This document shows, in pieces, positions 1 through 53,431 of a stretch of 64,000 nucleotides of DNA. Below the pieces are notes generated by a model. The model searched no databases. It saw only the letters and a list, made by a program, of their open reading frames with translations, and had not been told where the DNA came from. The stretch's first letter is position 1. Each line of letters starts with the position of its first letter. The position numbers were made by a program, and so were the translations under genes. This DNA comes from Escherichia coli (GTDB taxonomy: Bacteria > Pseudomonadota > Gammaproteobacteria > Enterobacterales > Enterobacteriaceae): NCBI RefSeq assembly GCF_003334305.1, contig NZ_QOWS01000001.1, one strand, 5' to 3'.

Positions 1-3000
1 TATTAATCGCTGGGTAACCAGACGGGTAAAGGGATGATTAACAAACAGAGAATGAAAATCTGCCAGCGACCAGCGTCGGGTGGTACGTAGGGCCGTTTCA
101 AGACGCGGGAGCAGGTTTTTGCTCACCTGAGTGGCATCTTTTTTTAGCCCTTTTAGTCGGGCCAATGCCTCGGGCGCTTTCAGTTGATCGTCATCGGCGC
201 GCAACCGGGGAACGCTTTTCTGGCGAACGTTTTGCTGATCAAAGATAACCGGGTTGAGGTTTTCATCGAAGCGAACGGTAAACTGCCGGGGACCAAAATC
301 AAAACTCAACGCCTGCGGATCATCAAGGCCCAGGGTTGGGACTAATCTGTCCGCTAGCTCTTCCTGGCTTAGCCCGCGATTTTCTGCGACCACCTGAAGA
401 AATTCCGCCGCGTTATCACGTAAGGGGCGGGATTTCGCCCGTTGCGATATATGATGCAGCTGTATCAGCGCCATATCATTATTCATCAGGGTAAGGATGT
501 TCAGGCCACTGACAGCACGGGCAGATTTGCCTTCTTGTGGCCAGCCGAGGATCTGTGTCGTTAGATCCCGTGCCGTGCTTTCGTCACCAAAGAGACTTAA
601 CGCCAGAAATGCCCAGTTGTCTTTTACGGGGGCACCAGCTTGTTGCCACGCAGTGAAGAGATCCCAGGCAAAAGCTGCCAGCGTTTGTGGCTGGCAGAAC
701 GTTTTCAGTTGTTCCAGCCCGCTATAAAAACGTCCCCCCTGGGTAAAGCGCAGCATTTCGCCGATAATTTCCAGAGCGTCATCGGTAACAGGTTGATTAT
801 TAGTGATAAGGCGCGGCCTGGACCACATTTGCGGATGCCAGAAATCAGGGGCTTTTGGAATGCGTGCCGGGTAAATCTCTATTGGACTCTGTTTAAGTAA
901 TTGTTCCAGGGCAGGCCATAGATCTGTACGCTGCCAACGATTGGCTACAGTTTGTAGCAATTCGCCATGCCCATGTTCGTAAAGTAAACGCAGGGCAAGT
1001 AATGCAGCTTCGCTTTTATCGCTAGATTTGGTGAAGATAAGAGGGATAAGTGCAGTAGCCGTATGTTCCGGCCATTGTAAAATCCACTGGCGAGCCAGAT
1101 TACGCTGGCCCGCAAAACGGTGCCAGACGCGGGCAATGGGCAGGGCCAGTTCTGTTGCGCCGAAATTTAAAATTAACGGAAATGTTTCTTTTGGACGATG
1201 TGAAAAAGCCAACATCAGACCTGGTAGCGCATCCAACCCGAGGATACTGAGAAAATAGTCCTCACCCGCGAACAGATGTTTTTTCTCATTGATACGCAGC
1301 CAGAAGGTCAAAGCCATCTCACGCGGCAACTGTGCCAATAAATACAGGTTCCAGACACTCTTTTCCGGACGATAACGTGAGTAGTTGTCATTTTCCCATA
1401 TGTTAATTAACGCTTCTATGTGACCGCTGCGGAGCGCCTGTTCTGCTAATTGTGCTTCCGGGGAGTTCCAGCCATTCAGGATCTCTTCAACCCGCCCCTG
1501 GTAGTAATGCCACTGAACAATGAGTGAATTGCGTGCAGCATCCAGTTTTCCGGGGAGTATATAATTCAAAAACAGCCATACATCATCCCCAAAACCCAGT
1601 TCCTGTAATACAACTCGCCCACTTTTTTGTTCCATGCGTTCCGCAAGAGATTCCGTGCTGAAATAACGGGCAGGCTCAGTGGCGGCAAGCCTCTCTCGTT
1701 CGCCAGGTTGCCAGTAAACTTGCGGCGTTAATTCGAGCGGTGCCAAATCAAGACGTGGAGCTGTCATTTTTTTCTTACTACGCCACGGTGGTGAAACGAG
1801 GATTTCAGGCAGATTGCTGTTATCGGTACTATCAATAACCGGTTTGGGCGGTGCCGATAAATAACTATTCAGCACTGCCCTGGCTTGAGTACTTAACCAC
1901 TGCATCATCTCTTCTGCCAGTTGTGGCTGCGATGCCATCAGCGTTTGTAACAGCGTACGCCAGTATTCATCGCGTGCTTTTTGCTGTGCAGGCAGCTTTT
2001 TGTCTTCGATGATTGGATAACCTGGGCGGGCTGGTGGTTCTGTTAACGCCAGCAGTTCTGCCAGTGCGGCGAGCGTCGCATGGGGGAAGTTTTTATGGTA
2101 TTTAGCTACACGTTGCAGGCTGGGTTTGTTTTTATCAGCCACCAGTAGCAAGGTGCGGATGACTTGCGGATGGTTAATTTGTACCAGCAGACTGCCGCAA
2201 TCTTCTTTATGGGCATACATCGCGAGGCGCGGAATGGCTGCCAGTCCTTGTTCGCGCAAAAGGGCGGCGCAGGCCGCGTAGCCGAAGTGGTTTTCATGCG
2301 ACATGTAGCTGGCTTCTCGATCGCTAAATATATCCTGGCTCCAGTAGTGCTCGAGTTTTCTCACCGCTGTGGGGTCATTAGCAACAACTTTTAACCACTC
2401 CTTAGAATGAAAATGAGTTCGCGGGCATTCAAGGCCTACCAACTCATTGGCTATTTCTGGTTTTTCCGGGAGGATCAGCGCAATAAAAGGGCGGCGAACT
2501 TTGGTTATTCCTGGTAGTGCGGCAATGAGTTTGTCGGCGCAACGCTGCCAGCAGCTTTCCTCTGCCAGAGAGAGATGCTTACGCAGTCGGAGATCGAATT
2601 CGTTATAGGTTTCTGAGCGATAACCATAGCCATAATCCTCGTCCTGATACTGCAATGTCACTACCAGAGGATCACTCTCATAACACCGCGCAATAAACTG
2701 GCGTGCAATCACCACCTCAGTCGCATATTCCAGCCCCTCTTGTTGGACGATTTCGTCGAGCAACTGTTGGCTGTCATTTTGCGCGATACAGGCTAGCGCC
2801 GCCATTGTCCGGGCCGGGATTGAGGGTTTGTGTTCGCCGATCAAGTTGATGGCCTGCGTGATGGCGGACTGCCACTCCAGTGAAAAATTTTCATAACGCC
2901 AGACAATGTTTTTTTTCTTCTCAGCTTTTTGTAGCAATTCATCACCCAGTGTCTGAATGATGCTTTCAGTGATAACAGGCACCGGTTCGCCCGGCCATTT

Positions 3001-3084
3001 GCGATGACTGAGTGGTGTTTTGCCTTTTTTATATTTCAGTTCCAGTTGGGCGTTATCCGCCAGCCACGGTAATTCCTTGTCCAT
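1..3084 (-). CDS. yehI: Large DUF4132-type protein, 3'-truncated by window edge (start codon at 3082-3084, reading frame open to position 1)
   Basis: Reverse-strand translation from ATG at 3084 reads MDKELPWLADNAQLELKYKKGK... with no stop seen before the window edge; it is absent from the ORF track only because it has no stop inside the window. Paralogous to the 1264-aa ORF upstream. Symbol inferred from remembered metG-molR-yehI order. Confidence 0.6.
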   Translation of the reverse strand, partial: MDKELPWLADNAQLELKYKKGKTPLSHRKWPGEPVPVITESIIQTLGDELLQKAEKKKNIVWRYENFSLEWQSAITQAINLIGEHKPSIPARTMAALACIAQNDSQQLLDEIVQQEGLEYATEVVIARQFIARCYESDPLVVTLQYQDEDYGYGYRSETYNEFDLRLRKHLSLAEESCWQRCADKLIAALPGITKVRRPFIALILPEKPEIANELVGLECPRTHFHSKEWLKVVANDPTAVRKLEHYWSQDIFSDREASYMSHENHFGYAACAALLREQGLAAIPRLAMYAHKEDCGSLLVQINHPQVIRTLLLVADKNKPSLQRVAKYHKNFPHATLAALAELLALTEPPARPGYPIIEDKKLPAQQKARDEYWRTLLQTLMASQPQLAEEMMQWLSTQARAVLNSYLSAPPKPVIDSTDNSNLPEILVSPPWRSKKKMTAPRLDLAPLELTPQVYWQPGERERLAATEPARYFSTESLAERMEQKSGRVVLQELGFGDDVWLFLNYILPGKLDAARNSLIVQWHYYQGRVEEILNGWNSPEAQLAEQALRSGHIEALINIWENDNYSRYRPEKSVWNLYLLAQLPREMALTFWLRINEKKHLFAGEDYFLSILGLDALPGLMLAFSHRPKETFPLILNFGATELALPIARVWHRFAGQRNLARQWILQWPEHTATALIPLIFTKSSDKSEAALLALRLLYEHGHGELLQTVANRWQRTDLWPALEQLLKQSPIEIYPARIPKAPDFWHPQMWSRPRLITNNQPVTDDALEIIGEMLRFTQGGRFYSGLEQLKTFCQPQTLAAFAWDLFTAWQQAGAPVKDNWAFLALSLFGDESTARDLTTQILGWPQEGKSARAVSGLNILTLMNNDMALIQLHHISQRAKSRPLRDNAAEFLQVVAENRGLSQEELADRLVPTLGLDDPQALSFDFGPRQFTVRFDENLNPVIFDQQNVRQKSVPRLRADDDQLKAPEALARLKGLKKDATQVSKNLLPRLETALRTTRRWSLADFHSLFVNHPFTRLVTQRLI

Positions 3085-3093
3085 GCTCTTTCC

Positions 3094-6000
3094 TTATTCA
3101 AACAGGGCTTCAATATCGTTAATTAGCTCGCTGGCGGTGATGGCATCGAGTACGGAGAACTGCGCTTCCTGTGTTGAATTACTCCCCCAGCCATAGCTTT
3201 CCGCTTTGCCTTCCCATAACCACAGCTTGCTTAAGAGCTGCTCAGCGCTAAGTTCGGCTGGTGACATACCCACCGCAAAACCTTCGTCGATTTCCATGAT
3301 TAACGACCAGCGACCCAAAGGTTTGATCATCCATCCGATCCAGCCTCCATCCTGTGGTTCGCCCTTTATCCAGCCTTTATTCGCCAGCCCCATGACCCGA
3401 CCACTCGGGCATTTTCTGCCTGCCCAGCGGGTCAGTTCACTGGCATTGTGCTCGGCTTCTGTCAGGGCGTAGCTGTTACGGTCGAGCTGGCGGAACGGTG
3501 GTAGCAGTTCGTAGTCGGCAAAAAGCTGACCAAAGGCGGCAGCATCCGTTGGTGATATTTCCAGAACGTGAGGAGTGCCGATAGAGATATCGCCTTCCGG
3601 CAGGGTGAAAAGATCATCGTCAGCGGTGCTGTAGCTGTTATCTTCTGCTACGCGAAAGCAAGCCAGTAGCTGGTTTTCGGCGCTATAAACGCCCCAAATC
3701 AGACGGCGGGTTAAGTGGCGAACCAGCGGATGCTCAACCAGGAAGAGCTGGAAGTTTTCCGGCGACCAGCGGCGGCGCAGGCACATGGCGGATTCCAGCC
3801 TTGCTACCTGCTGGGCGGCGACGGTACGCGCATCTTTTTTCAGCAATTTGTAGCGGTTAACCGCATCGTTCGACCGCGATTCATCATCGCTTTTGTTCGG
3901 TTTGGGCAGGTCTTTCAGGCGGCTGCCGGAAACATCACGCACAAACGGTTTTAAGGTTTCATCAAAGCTGACGGTGAACTGCCGTGGGCCAAAATCCAGC
4001 AGCAGCGAACCGTTATCATCCAGACCGAGATCCGGTGCTAACCGATCTTCAAGCTCCGCCACCGTGAGTTCGCGGCTCTCGGCAATGTCGGCAATTTTTT
4101 CTTTTGCCCGCTCCTGTAATGCTTTGAATTTCAGTTTCTGGGCGATGCCGTTAAGCTGCATAAGGGCGATATCACTACCGATAGCAGCGAGAATATCCAA
4201 CCCAACGGTGGCGCGTTTATGCTGGGATTCACCAGGCCAGGCGCGTATTAATGGCGTCAGTTTGCGGGCGGTGTCATCGTTACCGAGAACGCCTAACGCA
4301 GTGAACGCCCAACTCTCTTTCGACGGCGCGCCAGCGGTCTGCCAGGCGGTAAACAGATCCCAGGCAAATCCCGCCAGTGAGTCGGCGGAACAGACGTCTT
4401 TCACCTGCAATAATCCCGGATACAGAGCCTCTTCCTGAGGGAAGCGGAGCATTTCACCGAGGTGGAGGAGGGCGCTATCTGGCAGTGATTGGGCATTTGC
4501 TTTTAATACCGGGCGCGTCCAGAGCGATGGCTGATAAAAGGCCGGAAGAGTGGGGATTTTTGTCGGGTGATTATCTAAGGGATCGAGCGCAAGCAGAGCG
4601 TTCACCGCATCGGTTACTTCCGGCTGGTTATAACGTCGGGCGATTTCTTGCAGTAATGGCTGATGACCGTTTTCGGTAAGCATACGCAAGGCAGCGCGGG
4701 CGTTATCCTGTGCTTCACCGGCTTTGCCGAGCGCCGCAGGCAGCAGGCCGGTAAGGGCATGTTCCGGGTATTTCAACAGCCAGCTACGGGCGTTTTCGCG
4801 TAGCGTTTTCAGTTTGTTGAAGGCACGGGCGACGGCAGGAGCCAGCTCACTCGCTGCGAAGTAATTCGTGATGGGCAAGGCTTCTTGTGGATAGCGTGCA
4901 AGTGAGTTTACTAACCCAGGTAACCCTTTGAGTCCAAAATGTAACATGGCGTATTCGGTATCGGTATGTGGAGATAGGGTAAGGGCATTCCATGCTTTTA
5001 CTGCTTTCTCCAGCGGCAATGTTGTCAAAATCCCCAACTGCCAATAATGCCCGGTAGGTGAATGAAACACCTTAAATTCACTTAGTAAGGTTGAATAATC
5101 TTCATTTAGCCATGCCTCAACTACCGCTTCGGGAGCTTTAATATATGTACCAGCGATCCGTCGTTGAAAACCCATCCTTGCCAACAGGTTGGTAGTACTT
5201 TCTTCATGGCTAACCGTGATGTGTTTTGAATACCAGATATATTTCGCCAAAAGTTGATTACTGATTTCTTCTGTCAGATAACAGATTGGCTCAATGCCTA
5301 ATGGCGCTAAATCCAGCACCGGAATCGGCGATTTTTTCTTTTTCGAAAGCCAGGGAGGGGAGACTACTACGGCTGGCAGTAGATCGGCGCTGGCATGGTT
5401 TGAGGGCTGTGTCAGTTGTTGCTGGCATGATTTCAGTACGGCAACTGCGGGTGTCGAGAGCCAGGGAATGACCTGTTCTGCCAGTGCTGGTTGTGAGATA
5501 AGCATTGTCATTAGCATAATGCGCCAACTGTTCTCTTCTTTTTGCCCAAGAAGTTCCGTCAGTGCCGCCATTGCTGCATGTGGGAACGCAGCGCAGGCTT
5601 TCGTCATCCGATCGTGACAGCGTTTAGTATGCCCGGCTACACGTATAAGCAGTGTTAATGCGAACGGATGATTGATATGACGCAACACATCGGCGCAGTA
5701 GTCACTTGCGGCATAGGGAGCAAATCGGGGCAGGGCTGCAACACCTTGCTCCTGTAATACGGTGGCTGACCATATCGCACCACAATAGTAATCATCAAAA
5801 ATGGCATATGGCTCGTGATATTTTTCTAATGAGGCAAGAATGTGCTCATCAGTCGCCACTATTTTTAACCACTCAAGCGAGGGTAATTTTTTTTGCCCCA
5901 GTAGACGCTGGGCAATTTCATGTGCAATTTCTGGTTTTTCGGGTAATAACAAAGCAATTAATGGTTGCCGCCATTCTGGAATATGTGGAATTGCGGCAAT

Positions 6001-37696: not shown

Positions 37697-37968
37697 GTAT
37701 TCGTATTGAAATTGGCGAACGTTATGTCGTTACCAGTGACAGCTTTCAGTTTATTCTCCACGAGAAAAAGAGAGCGGAAAGCGGTAAAAACGCCGGTCAG
37801 GAATGGCTGGCGGTGGTTGGTTATTACCCGAAATTAAGCCAGCTCGTTTCAGGCCTGATGCATCACGATATTCTGACCGGAAGCGCAAAGTCTTTTGCTG
37901 ATTTAAACGTGCAGGTTGAGCAACTCAGCAAGCGTTGTTCAGAGGCTTTTGGCTCATATGGCCGTTAA
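37693..37968 (+). CDS. Small early protein (P2 orf83-like)
   Basis: 91-aa ORF overlapping the start of A. Confidence 0.5.
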   Translation: MSIRIEIGERYVVTSDSFQFILHEKKRAESGKNAGQEWLAVVGYYPKLSQLVSGLMHHDILTGSAKSFADLNVQVEQLSKRCSEAFGSYGR

Positions 37969-40243
37969 AGCCTCCGGGCGTTTTGTCCCTCCGTCAGCAT
38001 TTGCCGCAGGCACCGGTAAGATGTTTACCGGTGCTTATGCATGGAACGCGCCACGCGAGGCCGTCGGGCGCGAAAGACCCCTTACACGTGACGAGATGCG
38101 TCAGATGCAAGGTGTTTTATCCACGATTAACCGCCTGCCTTACTTTTTGCGCTCGCTGTTTACTTCACGCTATGACTACATCCGGCGCAATAAAAGCCCG
38201 GTGCACGGGTTTTATTTCCTCACATCCACTTTTCAGCGTCGTTTATGGCCGCGCATTGAGCGTGTGAATCAGCGCCATGAAATGAACACCGACGCGTCGT
38301 TGCTGTTTCTGGCAGAGCGTGACCACTATGCGCGCCTGCCGGGAATGAATGACAAGGAGCTGAAAAAGTTTGCCGCCCGTATCTCATCGCAGCTTTTCAT
38401 GATGTATGAGGAACTCAGCGATGCCTGGGTGGATGCACATGGCGAAAAAGAATCGCTGTTTACGGATGAGGCGCAGGCTCACCTCTATGGTCATGTTGCT
38501 GGCGCTGCACGTGCTTTCAATATTTCCCCGCTTTACTGGAAAAAATACCGTAAAGGACAGATGACCACGAGGCAGGCATATTCTGCCATTGCCCGTCTGT
38601 TTAACGATGAGTGGTGGACTCATCAGCTCAAAGGCCAGCGTATGCGCTGGCATGAGGCGTTACTGATTGCTGTCGGGGAGGTGAATAAAGACCGTTCTCC
38701 TTATGCCAGTAAACATGCCATTCGTGATGTGCGTGCACGCCGCCAGGCAAATCTGGAATTTCTTAAATCGTGTGACCTTGAAAACAGGGAAACCGGCGAG
38801 CGCATCGACCTTATCAGTAAGGTGATGGGCAGTATTTCTAATCCTGAAATTCGCCGGATGGAGCTGATGAACACCATTGCCGGTATTGAGCGTTACGCCG
38901 CCGCAGAGGGTGATGTGGGGATGTTTATCACGCTTACCGCGCCTTCAAAGTATCACCCGACACGTCAGGTCGGAAAAGGCGAAAGTAAAACCGTCCAGCT
39001 AAATCACGGCTGGAACGATGAGGCATTTAATCCAAAGGATGCGCAGCGTTATCTCTGCCATATCTGGAGCCTGATGCGCACGGCATTCAAAGATAATGAT
39101 TTACAGGTCTACGGTTTGCGTGTCGTCGAGCCACACCACGACGGAACGCCGCACTGGCATATGATGCTTTTTTGTAATCCACGCCAGCGTAACCAGATTA
39201 TCGAAATCATGCGTCGCTATGCGCTCAAAGAGGATGGCGACGAAAGAGGAGCCGCGCGAAACCGTTTTCAGGCAAAACACCTTAACCAGGGCGGTGCTGC
39301 GGGGTATATCGCGAAATACATCTCAAAAAACATCGATGGCTATGCACTGGATGGTCAGCTCGATAACGATACCGGCAGACCGCTGAAAGACACTGCTGCG
39401 GCTGTTACCGCATGGGCGTCAACGTGGCGCATCCCACAATTTAAAACGGTTGGTCTGCCGACAATGGGGGCTTACCGTGAACTACGCAAATTGCCTCGCG
39501 GCGTCAGCATTGCTGATGAGTTTGACGAGCGCGTCGAGGCTGCACGCGCCGCCGCAGACAGTGGTGATTTTGCGTTGTATATCAGCGCGCAGGGTGGGGC
39601 AAATGTCCCGCGCGATTGTCAGACTGTCAGGGTCGCCCGTAGTCCGTCGGATGAAGTTAACGAGTACGAGGAAGAAGTCGAGAGAGTGGTCGGCATTTAC
39701 GCGCCGCATCTCGGCGCGCGTCATATTCATATCACCAGAACGACGGACTGGCGCATTGTGCCGAAAGTTCCGGTCGTTGAGCCTCTGACTTTAAAAAGCG
39801 GCATCGCCGCGCCTCGGAGTCCTGTCAATAACTGTGGAAAGCTCACCGGTGGTGATACTTCGTTACCGGCTCCCACACCTTCTGAACACGCCGCAGCAGT
39901 GCTTAATCTGGTTGATGACGGTGTTATCGAATGGAATGACCCGGAGGTCGTGAGGGCGCTCAGGGGCGCATTAAAATACGGGCTGAGAACACCAAATCGT
40001 CAGCAGAGAAACGGAAGCCCGTTAAAACCACATGAAATTGCACCATCGGCCAGACTGACCCGGTCGGAAAGAATGCAAATTACCCGTATCCGCGTTGACC
40101 TTGCTCAGAACGGTATCAGGCCGCAGCGATGGGAGCTTGAGGCGCTGGCGCGTGGCGCGACCGTAAATTATGACGGGAAAAAATTCACGTATCCGGTCGC
40201 TGATGAGTGGCCGGGATTCTCAACAGTAATGGCGCGGATATAA
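37958..40243 (+). CDS. A: P2-like replication initiation endonuclease A (rolling-circle)
   Basis: About 761 aa from MAVKASGRF; HxH-type motif TPHWHMMLF and tyrosine pair GYIAKYISK. Confidence 0.9.
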   Translation: MAVKASGRFVPPSAFAAGTGKMFTGAYAWNAPREAVGRERPLTRDEMRQMQGVLSTINRLPYFLRSLFTSRYDYIRRNKSPVHGFYFLTSTFQRRLWPRIERVNQRHEMNTDASLLFLAERDHYARLPGMNDKELKKFAARISSQLFMMYEELSDAWVDAHGEKESLFTDEAQAHLYGHVAGAARAFNISPLYWKKYRKGQMTTRQAYSAIARLFNDEWWTHQLKGQRMRWHEALLIAVGEVNKDRSPYASKHAIRDVRARRQANLEFLKSCDLENRETGERIDLISKVMGSISNPEIRRMELMNTIAGIERYAAAEGDVGMFITLTAPSKYHPTRQVGKGESKTVQLNHGWNDEAFNPKDAQRYLCHIWSLMRTAFKDNDLQVYGLRVVEPHHDGTPHWHMMLFCNPRQRNQIIEIMRRYALKEDGDERGAARNRFQAKHLNQGGAAGYIAKYISKNIDGYALDGQLDNDTGRPLKDTAAAVTAWASTWRIPQFKTVGLPTMGAYRELRKLPRGVSIADEFDERVEAARAAADSGDFALYISAQGGANVPRDCQTVRVARSPSDEVNEYEEEVERVVGIYAPHLGARHIHITRTTDWRIVPKVPVVEPLTLKSGIAAPRSPVNNCGKLTGGDTSLPAPTPSEHAAAVLNLVDDGVIEWNDPEVVRALRGALKYGLRTPNRQQRNGSPLKPHEIAPSARLTRSERMQITRIRVDLAQNGIRPQRWELEALARGATVNYDGKKFTYPVADEWPGFSTVMARI

Positions 40244-40599
40244 TGACAAAGATTCACAAAGTAAAGCTGCACGCAAGATATTTCAACCTTGTGCTGGAGG
40301 AAAAAGAAACGCACAGAATTTAGGGGGATAGCCGTTATCATGTGTATGAAGCACTTGAAATGTATCTGCATCACTTGGGAGTGTGTCAACGGGGAATTTC
40401 CATCTATGTGATTTTTTGAGAGCAATGCAGTGAAGATAAAGATACTTATTATAAATCAATGTGATAGATGGTGCCTCGCAAACGTAAATGATAGTTTTGA
40501 AGCTTCAGGGCTGATGTCGTTCATAAGACTATGTTTACGCTATCATTTATGATAAAAATAATTAATTTTTATCATAAAGATTCAACAGAGGATATGTTG

Positions 40600-42105
40600 A
40601 TGAATCAACTAAAATCAATGAATATCAATAAGTTACTTTTGGATGTTGATAACCCTCGTTTCCCGACGTCAGCAGAAAATCAGCGTGATGCTATTGCCAA
40701 GATGCTTGACTTGCAGTACGACCGCATTTATCGCTTGGCTAAAGATATTGCTTCGAAAGGTTTAGATCCGTCTGAAAACATATTAGTTTATCCTAGTGAA
40801 GAGGAATCTGGCTTTTTCGTCGTTGCTGAAGGTAATCGTCGAGTTACAGCCCTTAAACTTTTACACTCTCCTAGACTTGCACCAACAGAAAAAGCACGGA
40901 AAGCTTTTGAAAAACTTAAGATTACTCAGCTTAAAGATATTAATGTTATAGATAACTGCGTTCTTTTTGACGATGATGAATATGAGCATTGGGTCAATTT
41001 AAAGCATACTGGTCAAAATGCTGGAGTTGGAAGAGTTGAATGGACTGCAACAGAAAAAGCACGACATCTGGCTAGGATGGGTAAGCAGTCATTTGGTAAT
41101 CAAATACTTACATTTATAGAGTTCAATACTGATTTATATAAAGAGATAATTGCTAAAAAAAGACTTTTAAAAATCACAAACATCACGCGTCTTTTTGGTG
41201 ATTTAAAGGTGAGGGATTATTTTAATTTAAAAAGCATTAATGGAGTTCTATACTCATATCAGCCTTATGAACGTTTTTGTGCACAATTAAAAAATATTTT
41301 AGATGTAATGATTGAAGAGGATGATAAAGGTAAGGCTTGTTTTACTGTTAATAGGATTCGTAGCCAAGATGACAGGGTTACATTTATTATTGAACAAAAA
41401 ATAAAACCTTCAGAATCTCTTTTAGATAAGCCGTGGAGTTTATTAGAGCCTAAATCTTTTCTTACAGAGAAAAAACATGATTCTATTGACAAAAATGATG
41501 CATCTGTGAGTGTAAAGAAAGCAGGTCTTTCAGAAGGTGATGCCTTAAAGAATACAGGTGTGGATAAACAGGAAGATGATTATTCTAGACATGTAGGCAC
41601 AGAAGAGAGTAAATCTAAAGTTTCGGGTACGGAACAGAATAAAAACAAGGGAAAAACTCCTCCTAAAGTAGATCGTAATGTGTTGGTGCCATCTTATGTG
41701 AAATTTAATTTTAGAGGGCATAAGAAATGCTCTAGAATATTTAATGAGCTTAAGTCGCATCTGACATTTGATAACACCCCTAATGCTATCTCAATATTGT
41801 TGAGAATATTTATAGATCTCTCTGTAAGCACTTTTGTTGAAGAAAACAAGTTACAATTTAAGGAACCACATAGAACTCCAGGGCTTCATGATAAGGTTAA
41901 AATGTGTGCTAATTTCCTTCGGGAAAATAAAAAGATGACGGGGAGTCAATGTACGGCTGTAATAACTTTCTCGAGCCAAATAACTAAACATGATGGTTCA
42001 TTGCAGCAGTATGTACATAACCCACACTTAATTCCCTCAAAAGAGGCTGTCAACACTGAGTGGGATAACTTTGAGTTGTTATTAAGCCTTATTTGGAGTG
42101 AGTGA
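40600..42105 (+). CDS. ParB/Srx-fold domain protein with disordered Lys/Ser/Glu-rich linker and uncharacterised C-terminal domain (cargo gene 1)
   Basis: ORF 40531-42105 (524 aa); likely start at 40600 (GAGGA seven nt upstream). N-terminus has DVDNPRF and VVAEGNRRVTALKLL, matching ParB box motifs; conspicuously AT-rich against the flanking phage genes. Confidence 0.7.
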   Translation: MNQLKSMNINKLLLDVDNPRFPTSAENQRDAIAKMLDLQYDRIYRLAKDIASKGLDPSENILVYPSEEESGFFVVAEGNRRVTALKLLHSPRLAPTEKARKAFEKLKITQLKDINVIDNCVLFDDDEYEHWVNLKHTGQNAGVGRVEWTATEKARHLARMGKQSFGNQILTFIEFNTDLYKEIIAKKRLLKITNITRLFGDLKVRDYFNLKSINGVLYSYQPYERFCAQLKNILDVMIEEDDKGKACFTVNRIRSQDDRVTFIIEQKIKPSESLLDKPWSLLEPKSFLTEKKHDSIDKNDASVSVKKAGLSEGDALKNTGVDKQEDDYSRHVGTEESKSKVSGTEQNKNKGKTPPKVDRNVLVPSYVKFNFRGHKKCSRIFNELKSHLTFDNTPNAISILLRIFIDLSVSTFVEENKLQFKEPHRTPGLHDKVKMCANFLRENKKMTGSQCTAVITFSSQITKHDGSLQQYVHNPHLIPSKEAVNTEWDNFELLLSLIWSE

Positions 42106-42174
42106 GATTTGTCTACATCTGGACATGGATGTCCAGAAACTGATAAACTACAAAATCAGGAATGAGAGGGATTT

Positions 42175-43059
42175 ATGAAATTTTATACTCCATTAAGATA
42201 CCCCGGCGGGAAAGGTAAGTTATCTTACTTTTTAAAAGATGTTATTGAAAAAAACTCGTTGAATGATGGAGCATATGCAGAACCTTACGCTGGTGGTGCA
42301 GGGGTGGCTTTAGAATTATTATTGGAAGAGTATGTCCGTAAAATCTATATAAATGATGCAGATTTTGCTGTTTATTCTTTTTGGTCATCTGTTGTTAGTG
42401 ATACTGATGAGCTTTGCCGACTTATTAGCCGAGCAAAGATAGATATGGATGAATGGTCTTTTCATCGCTATGTTATTTCGAATCCTTCTGAGTTTACTAA
42501 GCTTGAGGTTGGCTTTGCTGCGTTTTTCTTAAATAGAACAAATCGTTCAGGTATTCTCAAGGCGGGGGTTATAGGCGGGAAATCACAAAATGGAAAATGG
42601 AAAATGGATGTTCGCTTTAACAGGGCGGATTTAATTTCAAGAATTGAGAAGATAGCAAATTATAATCAAAGAATAGTAGTAACTAATCTGGATGCTTTGG
42701 ATTTTCTTGATGTCTTGAATTTTATGGATAATATGGGAAAGGTGGATAAAAATAAAATTCTTTTGTATTTGGATCCTCCTTACTATATTAAAGGGCAAGG
42801 GCTTTACAGGAATTTTTATGAGCATGATGATCATGTATTGGTTATGAAGAAACTCACAGAAATTAATTTCCCAAATTGGCTTGTTTCTTATGATAACGCT
42901 AAGGAAATTAAAGATATTTATAATGGATTTCCGCAAGTTGAGTATTCATTGCAATATACAGCGCATCTCAAAAAATCTGGAGAGGAAGTGATGATTTTTT
43001 CTCCTGAAATAATTATTCCTAATACCCTGAAAGGGGGCTCAATGCCAACTTGCGCCTGA
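42175..43059 (+). CDS. Dam-family (D12 class) N6-adenine DNA methyltransferase (cargo gene 2)
   Basis: 294 aa; motifs collinear with E. coli Dam: YPGGKGK (Dam WAGGK), EPYAGGAGV (Dam EPFVGAGSV), FFLNRTNRSG (Dam LYLNRYGYNG) and DPPYY (residues about 200-204); AT-rich. Confidence 0.85.
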   Translation: MKFYTPLRYPGGKGKLSYFLKDVIEKNSLNDGAYAEPYAGGAGVALELLLEEYVRKIYINDADFAVYSFWSSVVSDTDELCRLISRAKIDMDEWSFHRYVISNPSEFTKLEVGFAAFFLNRTNRSGILKAGVIGGKSQNGKWKMDVRFNRADLISRIEKIANYNQRIVVTNLDALDFLDVLNFMDNMGKVDKNKILLYLDPPYYIKGQGLYRNFYEHDDHVLVMKKLTEINFPNWLVSYDNAKEIKDIYNGFPQVEYSLQYTAHLKKSGEEVMIFSPEIIIPNTLKGGSMPTCA

Positions 43060-43206
43060 TTTTACTTATTTTTTGTCAGTAAGTAATTAGTTTGGTGCAT
43101 TTATTTGCATTCATTTTTAAATGCCAGTTCTGGTATCTAACATCAGTGCTGGCGCATTCTAACCATTACTGCTGCACTGCATTTAAAGCCCTGCATGAAG
43201 CGGGCG

Positions 43207-43225
43207 GGCGAGGCGGGGAAAGCAC
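43207..43225. other. Phage cos site (19-nt cohesive-end sequence)
   Basis: GGCGAGGCGGGGAAAGCAC matches my recollection of the P2/186 cohesive end; lies between the cargo and portal gene Q. Confidence 0.75.
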
Positions 43226-43393
43226 TGCGCGCTGACGGTGGTGCTGATTGTATTTTTTCAGCGTCTCAGCGCGTCGTGACGGCGCTTAGTCTGCCCGTTG
43301 AGGCGTTGTGTGTCTGCGGGGTGTTTTGTGCGGTGGTGAGCGTGTGAGGGCGTGATGACTGGGTGTAAAAAAGCCGCCCGCAGGCGGCGATGT

Positions 43394-44428
43394 TCAGCCG
43401 TTGTCAGTGTCCAGTGAGTAGTTTTTAAAGCGGATGACCTCCTGACCGAGCCAGCCGTTTATCTCGCGGATCCTGTCCTGTAACGGGATAAGCTCATTGC
43501 GGACAAAGACCTTTGCCACTTTCTCAATATCACCCAGCGACCCGACGTTCTCCGGCTTGCCCCCCATCAACTGAAAGGGGATGCGGTGCGCGTCCAGCAG
43601 GTCAGTGGCGCTGGCTTTTTTGATATTAAAAAAATCGTCCTTCGTCGCTACTTCACTGAGGGGGATAATTTTAATGCCGTCAGCTTTCCCCTGTGGCGCA
43701 TAGAGAAACAGATTTTTAAAGTTGTTGCGGCCTTTCGACTTAACCATGTTTTCGCGAAGCATTTCGATATCGTTGCGATCCTGCACGGCATCGGTGACGT
43801 ACATGATGTATCCGGCATGGGCGCCATTTTCGTAATACTTGCGGCGGAACAGCGTGGCCGACTCATTCAGCCAGGCAGAGTTAAGGGCGCTGAGATATTC
43901 CGGCAGGCCGTACAGCTCCTGATTAATATCCGGCTCCAGCAGGTGAAACACGGAGCCGGGCGCGAAAGGTGTCGGCTCATGGAAGGACGGCACCCACCAG
44001 TAAACATCCTCTTCCACGCCACGGCGGGTATATTTTGCCGGTGAGGTTTCCAGTCTGATGACCTTACCGGTGGTGCTGTAACGCTTTTCCAGAAACGCAT
44101 TACCGAACACCAGAAAATCCAGCACAAAGCGGCTGAAATCCTGCTGGGAAAGCCACGGATGCGGAATAAACGTTGAAGCCAGAATATTGCGTTTAACGTA
44201 AATCGGCGAGCTGTGATGCACGGCAGCACGCAGGCTTTTTGCCAGACCGGTAAAGCTGACCGGCGGCTCATACCATCTGCCGTTACTGATGCACTCGACG
44301 TAATCCAGAATGTCACGGCGGTCGAGTACCGGCACCGGCTCGCCAAAGGTGAATGCCTCCATTTTCGGGGCGCTGGCGGTCATTGTTTTTGCCGCAGGTT
44401 GCGGTGTTTTCCCTTTTTTCTTGCTCAT
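43394..44428 (-). CDS. Q: Portal protein
   Basis: 344 aa, P2 gpQ length and position. Confidence 0.9.
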   Translation of the reverse strand: MSKKKGKTPQPAAKTMTASAPKMEAFTFGEPVPVLDRRDILDYVECISNGRWYEPPVSFTGLAKSLRAAVHHSSPIYVKRNILASTFIPHPWLSQQDFSRFVLDFLVFGNAFLEKRYSTTGKVIRLETSPAKYTRRGVEEDVYWWVPSFHEPTPFAPGSVFHLLEPDINQELYGLPEYLSALNSAWLNESATLFRRKYYENGAHAGYIMYVTDAVQDRNDIEMLRENMVKSKGRNNFKNLFLYAPQGKADGIKIIPLSEVATKDDFFNIKKASATDLLDAHRIPFQLMGGKPENVGSLGDIEKVAKVFVRNELIPLQDRIREINGWLGQEVIRFKNYSLDTDNG

Positions 44429-52645: not shown

Positions 52646-53431
52646 TTATGAGTGATTTTTATTTGATGCTTTGTATTCTAAAACCTTCTTATTGGCGTAA
52701 AAGAATTTTGTATATGACAGGAATATAACCAGACCTGAAGTGAAATAGACGAGGGATAGTATTAATAATGCTTTTTTGTGACTGTTATTATCTTTAATCT
52801 CCTGGCTTAACCATTCGGAGTCCTCCTCGTTTAGCTGTAAGAGCTTATTGCAGGCGATCTCAGGAAGTGTGTCTTTTATAAATACGTTTTGCAGTTTCTT
52901 GCAATCGGCAAGGCTATAAGTTTTATTAAATTCAACTGCTTTATTTTTGAAGGATAAAAGAACTTTGTCACTATAAACATAGTACATCATGTTTTTATAT
53001 GGTATGCCTATGGCATCCCTTACTATAACGGATTGTTTGTTGTGTATGTAACATGCGAGGAGAATGTAAAAAATACTGGTCAGAATTACAATTATTGTTT
53101 TAATTATGTGTGGTGGTTTTGTTATGTCACCCCAGATGCGAGTAAGGAAAAAATACGATGTTTTTAGTTTTCCATCAATCAGTCCCTGCTGTATCATTCT
53201 CACATTTTCAATGCCTGATACATTGATTCCGTTAATTATTTTAAATAGTTGAATGTCGCGCCACTCGCGGTCAAGTCTTTTTAATTTTTTGTCTGAATAT
53301 CCAAAATTGAAATAATGTGCAATAAGCCTCATAAGGTTACTTTTACCAAAGCTAAAAAATGCTAATACTGCAAAGCTACAAAGGAAAAAAACGATTAGCC
53401 CCCACACATTAGTCACATTATAGCTGACCAT
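52646..53431 (-). CDS. AT-rich predicted membrane protein of unknown function, antisense to the late operons (cargo)
   Basis: 261-aa ORF between S and V; about three hydrophobic helices (IVFFLCSFAVLAFFSF, IIKTIIVILTSIFYILLACYI, ALLILSLVYFTSGLVIFLSY); Lys/Asn/Ile-rich. Confidence 0.65.
   Translation of the reverse strand: MVSYNVTNVWGLIVFFLCSFAVLAFFSFGKSNLMRLIAHYFNFGYSDKKLKRLDREWRDIQLFKIINGINVSGIENVRMIQQGLIDGKLKTSYFFLTRIWGDITKPPHIIKTIIVILTSIFYILLACYIHNKQSVIVRDAIGIPYKNMMYYVYSDKVLLSFKNKAVEFNKTYSLADCKKLQNVFIKDTLPEIACNKLLQLNEEDSEWLSQEIKDNNSHKKALLILSLVYFTSGLVIFLSYTKFFYANKKVLEYKASNKNHS

Follow-up and report, generated by a model that had tools for sequence, protein, structure and literature searches.

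A D12-class DNA methyltransferase gene in a P2-like prophage of Escherichia coli as the very probable modification component of the two-gene anti-phage system PD-λ-5

We analyzed a window of 64,000 nucleotides (nt) of Escherichia coli DNA (assembly GCF_003334305.1, contig NZ_QOWS01000001.1; all positions below are those of this whole stretch unless another record is named), in which a P2-like prophage inserted beside yegR/yegS carries a DNA methyltransferase gene on the + strand at positions 42175-43059. We propose that the product of this gene is very probably B, the modification subunit of PD-λ-5; this anti-phage system consists of two genes, resembles restriction-modification (R-M) and is carried as cargo in the P2 hotspot that lies between gpA and cos. 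PD-λ-5 itself is already known and validated in its strain of origin, so that the finding rediscovers a published, validated defence system in its own source strain. Beyond this identity, we present evidence that the methylase and its upstream neighbor, A, are almost inseparable across distant genomes, that the methylase falls outside the Dam subfamily, and that its promoter offers a lead to its target.

The window pair is the published PD-λ-5 itself, because its B protein is RCQ13838.1, residue for residue, in an exact-sequence look-up, the cassette DNA is 100% identical to that of E. coli A7, an orangutan isolate, and ECOR7, the source strain of the cloned PD-λ-5, is likewise an orangutan isolate (PMC9519451). 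In Table S2 of that paper the same accession is listed for PD-λ-5 B; the paper places the clone at 264599-267059 of the ECOR7 contig QOWS01000001 and names its proteins as RCQ13837.1 and RCQ13838.1 (PMC9519451); the exact-sequence look-up of A listed no accession. Both proteins are also recovered by the dedicated PADLOC models: B matches PD-Lambda-5_B with an E-value of 2.6e-121, its residues 1-286 being aligned with positions 1-280 of the 291 in the model, and the long upstream open reading frame (ORF) matches PD-Lambda-5_A with an E-value of 5.9e-168, its residues 24-523 being aligned with positions 1-465 of the 466 in that model. PD-λ-5 was one of 21 systems obtained by functional selection by Vassallo et al. 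(2022, Nat Microbiol; PMC9519451), who annotated it as 'ParB/HEPN, methyltransferase', described it as a 'compacted RM + Abi' system, where Abi denotes abortive infection, and found that it reduced the plating of nine of the ten phages tested, T-even phages most. In the literature open to search, its later appearances are limited to census papers and passing mentions, and we found no mechanistic study.

The conserved gene neighborhood of the two proteins provides further contextual information. In the window, gene A (40600-42105) is followed on the same strand by B (42175-43059) after a gap of 69 nt, and the homologue lists of the two proteins have at least 29 contigs in common. We surveyed this pairing by scanning IMG/VR with the A alignment and searching all ORFs with hidden Markov models, and obtained 78 loci with enough downstream DNA. 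In 67 of them a B-family methylase follows A immediately and in the same orientation, in seven it is the next gene but convergent, and in two it is 1.4-1.8 kb away from A; it was absent only from the other two loci, in both of which A is truncated. A and B are thus an almost obligate pair (76/78 loci). The order of A followed by a PF02086 gene recurs at three distant loci, namely a Desulfoluna prophage, a Vibrio recombinase island and a metagenome-assembled genome with an A that is 29% identical. The initial annotation, made from the letters of the sequence, had regarded the gene as an uncharacterized, stand-alone prophage methylase, a view that neither the pairing nor the identity of the two genes with the published PD-λ-5 supports; among the three consequences it had envisaged (restriction evasion, gene regulation, and self/non-self marking for the adjacent ParB-fold protein), only the last draws support, from the conserved pair and the published defence system.

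Two further arrangements were noticed. The 75-kb viral contig IMGVR_UViG_3300034072_002256 carries two A-B pairs about 39 kb apart (loci L030, 7243-18685, and L031, 46549-57991), which are ~38% identical to the A of the window. In Vibrio parahaemolyticus (loci L003/L004) the A-B pair is flanked by genes for a large serine recombinase and for a resolvase and adjoins an Abi_2 (HEPN) gene; there is no prophage at this site, which constitutes a small mobile islet of defence genes.

The methylase gene lies exactly at the coordinates given in the initial annotation: it is an ORF encoding 294 aa with an ATG start, and a Shine-Dalgarno sequence, GAGAGGG, lies 5-6 nt upstream of that ATG. The protein contains all four of the motifs called diagnostic there, in the canonical alpha-class order and far above chance expectation: RYPGGK (residues 8-13, nt 42196-42213), the S-adenosylmethionine-binding motif I EPYAGGAG (residues 36-43, nt 42280-42303), FFLNR (residues 117-121, nt 42523-42537) and the catalytic DPPY (residues 200-203, nt 42772-42783). 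It also matches the Pfam family PF02086, MethyltransfD12, over residues 9-255 (i-E 5.7e-16). The methylase is a D12-class DNA methyltransferase that falls outside the Dam (GATC) subfamily. The earlier description of it as 'Dam-family' stands in the broad Pfam sense and falls for the stricter NCBIfam model TIGR00571, 'dam', against which B scores 46.8 bits when the curated cut-off is 114.85.

Consistent with this placement, a search of all PDB sequences with B returned a single match, 7M6B (M.CbeI), with an E-value of 2.3e-12 for the single sequence and 2e-22 for a family profile built from 29 sequences, and neither B nor its family profile matched EcoDam, T4 Dam or DpnM at E<=1. An EcoDam query (its sequence 278/278 identical to PDB 4GOL) retrieves Dam enzymes and not 7M6B. 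Over the full length, B and EcoDam are 22-23% identical, and their hhalign comparison gives a probability of 82% at 22% identity. In both the BLASTP and the hhalign alignments, EcoDam Y119, N120, L122, R124 and P134, the residues of its GATC-reading beta-hairpin, are aligned with R124, S125, I127, K129 and Q138 of B. The hairpin residues of EcoDam are thus not conserved. Within the B family itself there is hardly any variation in the segment FFLNRTNRSGILKAGVIGGK.Q.G.WK, an indication that a single specificity prevails throughout the family. M.CbeI (PDB 7M6B) is an alpha-class N4-cytosine methylase with a DPPY motif that acts on GGCC and had itself been labeled an adenine methylase; DmtB of Anabaena likewise belongs to the alpha class, has DPPY and modifies N4 of cytosine in GGCC. 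Because B falls under the TIGR00571 cut-off, retrieves only M.CbeI and has the GATC hairpin residues replaced, GATC is a very unlikely target and the label 'adenine' is not safe for this protein. The possibility of a target other than GATC, which had been raised earlier, is therefore upheld, and the accompanying assumption of adenine methylation is not, as the only relative with a solved structure is a D12-class DPPY enzyme that makes N4-methylcytosine.

We also considered the restriction background of the hosts. In A7/ECOR7 (NZ_CP028767.1, 640-644 kb; locus L098, 18093-22183) the whole interval from yjiS to yjiA, which on the K-12 map contains mcrC, mcrB, symE, hsdSMR and mrr, is gone, and a penicillin G acylase gene is present instead. 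A native host without mcrBC-hsd-mrr fits a tolerance of PD-λ-5 methylation. For the PD-λ-5 cassette, and for this one system only, the published work used as host an MG1655 derivative deleted for the mrr-containing region, the only MG1655 background in which its authors were able to maintain the cassette (PMC9519451). Both observations fit an active enzyme that writes a mark open to modification-dependent restriction, although they do not tell N6-methyladenine (m6A) from N4-methylcytosine (m4C). B is therefore probably active, as had been suggested from its motifs alone.

The partner protein A presents a more unusual architecture. Two parts of its AlphaFold model (predicted local distance difference test score of 83) are well predicted, one module comprising residues 1-290 and the other residues 355-501, and a disordered linker (292-351) separates them. 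In this model the N-terminal module adopts a ParB/Srx fold with an arginine-rich box of the GxxRxxA type, and the C-terminal domain (~355-501) a HEPN helical-bundle fold; among known structures, A is matched best by the transcriptional repressor KorB and by ParB proteins that bind CTP, rather than by nucleases. A is hence predicted to couple a module of the ParB/KorB type, for the binding of nucleotides and DNA, to a domain with the HEPN fold. The residues invariant in its alignment are the EGNRR box (77-81), a loop with H136, G138, N140 and G142, and, toward the C-terminus, R402 and Y471-V-H473-N474. ParB-HEPN fusions, as well as operons in which HEPN genes accompany those for ParB and DNA methylases, were catalogued by Anantharaman et al. 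(2013).

The system and its immediate surroundings in the window are as follows:

37916-40243, + strand: P2 gpA replication endonuclease (RefSeq label in identical and near-identical genomes; GC content 0.534); left border of the hotspot, outside the system.
40244-40599, + strand: AT-rich leader 5' of gene A (GC content 0.357) with a DUF3850 remnant; presumed location of the promoter of A.
40600-42105, + strand: PD-λ-5 A, 501 aa, predicted effector (PADLOC model; true start at 40600).
42119-42136, no strand assigned: perfect dyad of 18 nt, candidate operator, read from the sequence; overlaps the -35 element of the methylase promoter.
42120-42149, + strand: sigma-70-type methylase promoter (promoter scan).
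42175-43059, + strand: PD-λ-5 B, 294 aa, D12-class (alpha) DNA methyltransferase, modification component (PADLOC, Pfam, exact look-up to RCQ13838.1).
43143-43390, no strand assigned: cos-proximal non-coding region of P2, conserved in P2-like phages; right border of the cargo.
43394-44428, - strand: P2 portal gpQ, right neighbor, outside the system (ORF and RefSeq annotation).

The A-B pair is thus cargo of the P2 hotspot, with the replication endonuclease on one side and cos and the portal gene on the other, and the prophage context that had been read from the sequence is confirmed. The AT-richness remarked upon at the same time is equally evident: the methylase gene and gene A have GC contents of 0.350 and 0.351, against 0.534 for gpA and 0.532 for the portal gene, and GC contents at third codon positions of 0.29 and 0.27, against 0.55 in the flanking P2 genes. 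On base composition, origin of the gene in a low-GC donor is a reasonable supposition. When positions 40250-43390 were used as a query, only the last ~250 nt (43143-43390, query positions 2894-3141) proved common to P2-like phages and ~2,100 other E. coli genomes. The full cassette was present in 22 of 5,426 complete E. coli genomes and in none of the deposited phage genomes, where the best relatives of B are at most 51% identical and bear uninformative names.

Several smaller features of the prophage deserve mention. Promoter-like matches in the leader (40244-40599) are no commoner than in shuffled sequence. Directly after gpA, at ~40243-40324, is a fragment of a DUF3850 gene, which RefSeq records as a frameshifted, incomplete pseudogene; DUF3850 is an ASCH-like, RNA-binding domain, and the fragment looks like the scar of an earlier cargo in the same hotspot. 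The portal gene is an intact ORF encoding 344 aa in the window, yet is frameshifted in the otherwise identical A7 RefSeq record, a discrepancy that probably reflects an assembly error in the A7 record or a one-base difference. Farther along, an ORF encoding 261 aa (52646-53431, - strand) occupies the position of P2 orf30 between a virion morphogenesis gene and the baseplate gene V and coincides with a dip in GC content to 0.47; it matches phrog_2407, of unknown function, has no PADLOC match, and is possibly a further cargo gene or defence candidate.

We then turned to the gap between the two genes. B is transcribed from its own sigma-70-type promoter within this gap, comprising a -35 element TGGACA (42120-42125), a spacer of 18 nt and an extended -10 element TG-A-TAAACT (TAAACT at 42144-42149). 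The dyad at 42119-42136, CTGGACAT-GG-ATGTCCAG, contains the -35 TGGACA, and the same type of dyad is present in enterobacterial relatives (loci L015-L019 and L032). A generic promoter and terminator scan of the cassette performed no better than on shuffled sequence. We rejected the dyad as a conserved RNA hairpin or terminator, given that its sequence is not kept outside the enterobacterial relatives and that the two genes overlap in some loci. A comparative survey of 67 non-redundant loci and 614 control windows revealed a recurrent element: TGGCCA occurs within -30 to +60 nt of the stop codon of A in 27/67 loci (40%) against 24/614 controls (3.9%), and the composite pattern of TGGNCN, 16-18 nt and TANNNT in 26/67 loci against 9/614 controls. 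In loci where B is convergent with or remote from A, TGGCCA followed after 17-18 nt by TANNNT is still found upstream of B (eight of nine loci), and upstream of gene A TGGCCA shows no enrichment (two of 48 loci). Since the element follows B when the gene is remote or convergent and is not enriched upstream of A, it belongs to the methylase promoter. By our own count, half of the TGGCCA sites extend to palindromes of 8 bp and many to 10 bp. The palindromic -35 is a candidate operator, which could be either methylation-sensitive or bound by a protein; CfrBI offers a precedent for a methylase gene with a methylation site in the -35 element of its promoter. A third promoter design was seen in the A-B gaps of loci L024, L025, L027 and L034, in which the -35 resembles TGGAAA and is not palindromic, and a dyad, CACA(T/G)GGA(T/A)TGTG, is instead placed in the spacer that precedes the -10.

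The recurrent hexamer bears on the specificity of the enzyme, as TGGCCA contains GGCC, the site of M.CbeI and DmtB, both of which methylate the equivalent C. An orphan 'DNA adenine methylase' of Acinetobacter baumannii A118 (MT2/H0N27_12600) was shown by heterologous expression to generate m4C at position 4 of TGGCCA, the Shewanella algae type II alpha enzyme E1N14_009720 has been assigned m4C at the same position of the same hexamer, and REBASE includes a large type II alpha family predicted to recognize TGGCCA. We observed that A. baumannii commonly has the A-B pair, with a B that is 57% identical to that of ECOR7. We regard TGGCCA, or a sequence very similar to it, as the leading candidate for the target, and predict that the methyl group is placed either on the first C, at N4, or on the A, at N6; the link is circumstantial.

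Other potential sources of information on the specificity were less productive. The prophage part of the window (34100-64000) has no TGGCCA against 7.8-10 expected, and 11 other palindromic hexamers are also absent from it; the twelve, each with 6.7-9 sites expected, include CAGCTG, CCATGG, CCGCGG, GAGCTC and TGGCCA. The P2-like phage OU784746, which is without PD-λ-5, has one TGGCCA and lacks 16 palindromes. We therefore discarded TGGCCA avoidance as evidence of specificity, the avoidance of palindromes being general, since OU784746 shows it too. The lack of GGCC in the cassette (none against 2.5 expected) is not significant and was likewise set aside. The TGGCCA enzyme AYM39_01025 of Methylomonas DH-1, detected by bisulfite, was not among the homologues of the Methylomonas koyamae B, and may be a C5 enzyme. 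A contig scan with the Shewanella B homologue gave only two Paenibacillus loci and did not return S. algae CECT 5071.

In light of the obligate pairing and the predicted architecture of A, we posit that B would methylate the DNA of both host and prophage at a short palindrome other than GATC, and that this mark would keep A off self DNA; it is the obligate pairing that suggests protection of self DNA from A by B. A would recognize unmarked incoming phage DNA through its ParB/KorB-like DNA-binding module, and would then damage that DNA by ParB-type nicking and/or trigger its HEPN domain, with RNA cleavage as an abortive-infection arm. This combination corresponds to the published description as a 'compacted RM + Abi' system. 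With a promoter of its own, B could be expressed whether or not A is, which is what a module resembling R-M requires on entering a new cell. A more specific version, which we regard as speculative and rather unlikely to hold in full, is that B is not an adenine methylase but an N4-cytosine methyltransferase for TGGCCA (TGG-m4C-CA), akin to the GGCC enzymes M.CbeI and DmtB, controlling its own expression via the -35 palindrome, and that A is a ParB/KorB-like reader of DNA, gated by a nucleotide, which would load wherever the site is unmethylated and then set off a HEPN nuclease of non-canonical type. If true, this would amount to a restriction-like system with a partition-protein fold in place of the restriction enzyme.

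A number of points weigh against this interpretation of PD-λ-5. The published protection is strongest against the T-even phages, whose DNA contains glucosyl-hydroxymethylcytosine, and simple reading of a site with an unmethylated C does not readily account for this. The readable literature is without an experiment for cleavage of DNA or RNA by A, protection by B against A, or the target of B. With respect to the effector, Pfam searches by HMMER, ParBc included, gave no match for A or for 47 homologues; A has no recognizable restriction-endonuclease fold, its structural matches being to ParB/KorB and HEPN; and the Rx4-6H motif of HEPN domains is not conserved, the only Rx4H (RTPGLH, 425-430) being lost in distant homologues, although HEPN variants with the H but without the R are known (Anantharaman et al. 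2013). With respect to the target, A118 MT2 and S. algae E1N14_009720 are only possible members of the B family, the ECOR7 promoter has TGGACA and the A. baumannii promoter neither TGGCCA nor TGGACA, and in the methylome of Photorhabdus TT01 TGGCCA carries m6A, with no enzyme assigned.

Three other explanations of the gene have to be set against a modification subunit of PD-λ-5. B might be an orphan prophage methyltransferase that shields phage DNA from host restriction or reprograms host expression, with the ParB-like neighbor unrelated to it. Family members are indeed called orphan 'DNA adenine methylases' in RefSeq and in methylome papers, no classical restriction gene adjoins them, and the strong general avoidance of palindromes in P2-like phages speaks of restriction pressure; nevertheless, we hold this to be very improbable, because the loci in which the A homologue accompanies B come from very distant taxa and contexts, the two genes cloned as one unit give phage defence, and both have dedicated PADLOC models. 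That B is a redundant Dam-type GATC methylase of the kind found in many phages (T4, P1, Stx phages), adding nothing new in a dam+ host, is scarcely credible: the D12-class fold and motifs and the 22-23% identity to EcoDam along the length are what this explanation would predict, but the score lies under the curated Dam cut-off, Dam, T4 Dam and DpnM are missed even by the family profile, other residues stand in place of those by which the hairpin contacts GATC, and GATC methylation is harmless in K-12, yet the cassette required a host deleted for the region with mrr.

The third proposal is that the pair is primarily an addiction or regulatory module rather than a self/non-self marker, in which A would be a KorB-like nucleotide-gated DNA-binding regulator acting at the palindromic operator in the methylase promoter, and defence would be HEPN-mediated abortive infection triggered by, for example, a phage protein or a block of methylation. 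Its attractions are that the best structural matches of A are KorB and CTP-binding ParB rather than nucleases, that a conserved dyad or palindrome, often of 8-10 bp, overlaps the methylase -35, that HEPN domains are typical effectors of abortive infection, and that protection against T-even phages is good when the modified DNA of these phages evades most R-M systems. Set against these is the strict linkage of A to a methylase with a near-invariant DNA-reading segment, which indicates that a DNA mark is being read; we consider this explanation improbable. We accordingly favor B as the modification subunit of PD-λ-5.

As the system had already been published, the remaining value of the present analysis lies in the specificity of B and the base it modifies, the effect of the mark on A, the sensitivity of the palindromic -35 to methylation or to a protein, and the unusual effector. 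It also counsels caution in annotation: the labels 'DNA adenine methylase' and 'orphan' sit on a widespread family, found in Salmonella, Acinetobacter, Vibrio, Serratia, Proteus and others, in which a ParB-HEPN effector nearly always accompanies the methylase and the methylated base may be cytosine.

Comparison with known systems places PD-λ-5 as follows. The window pair agrees with the system of Vassallo et al. (2022) in the sequence of B, the source strain, the gene span and the position in the P2 hotspot; that publication is without a target sequence, biochemistry of A or promoter analysis. Among methylases, the Dam subfamily (EcoDam, T4 Dam, DpnM) shares with B the Pfam family and the order of motifs, but the two groups do not retrieve each other by HMMER. 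M.CbeI is nearer to B than the Dam enzymes are, sharing RYPGGK, motif I, LNR and DPPY, although it is 27% identical and its hairpin segment differs in sequence and length. The TGGCCA-specific alpha enzymes resemble the B family in their labels (adenine methylase or type II alpha), in being seen as orphans, in size (~265-289 aa) and in taxonomic spread. On the side of the effector, the CTP-dependent clamps ParB, KorB and Noc have an N-terminal fold and an arginine-rich box like those of A (GERR against EGNRR in A), whereas A has no Pfam ParBc match, and its CTP binding, clamping and nuclease activities are predictions. Finally, PD-λ-5 shares with classical type II R-M systems a methyltransferase tightly linked to a (predicted) effector, a methylase promoter of its own, carriage on mobile elements, and methylation that is incompatible with a host having modification-dependent restriction. 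It differs from them in that their restriction enzymes belong to the PD-(D/E)XK, HNH or GIY-YIG folds whereas its partner is instead ParB/KorB-like with a HEPN domain, and in that, unlike them, it protects against T-even phages too.

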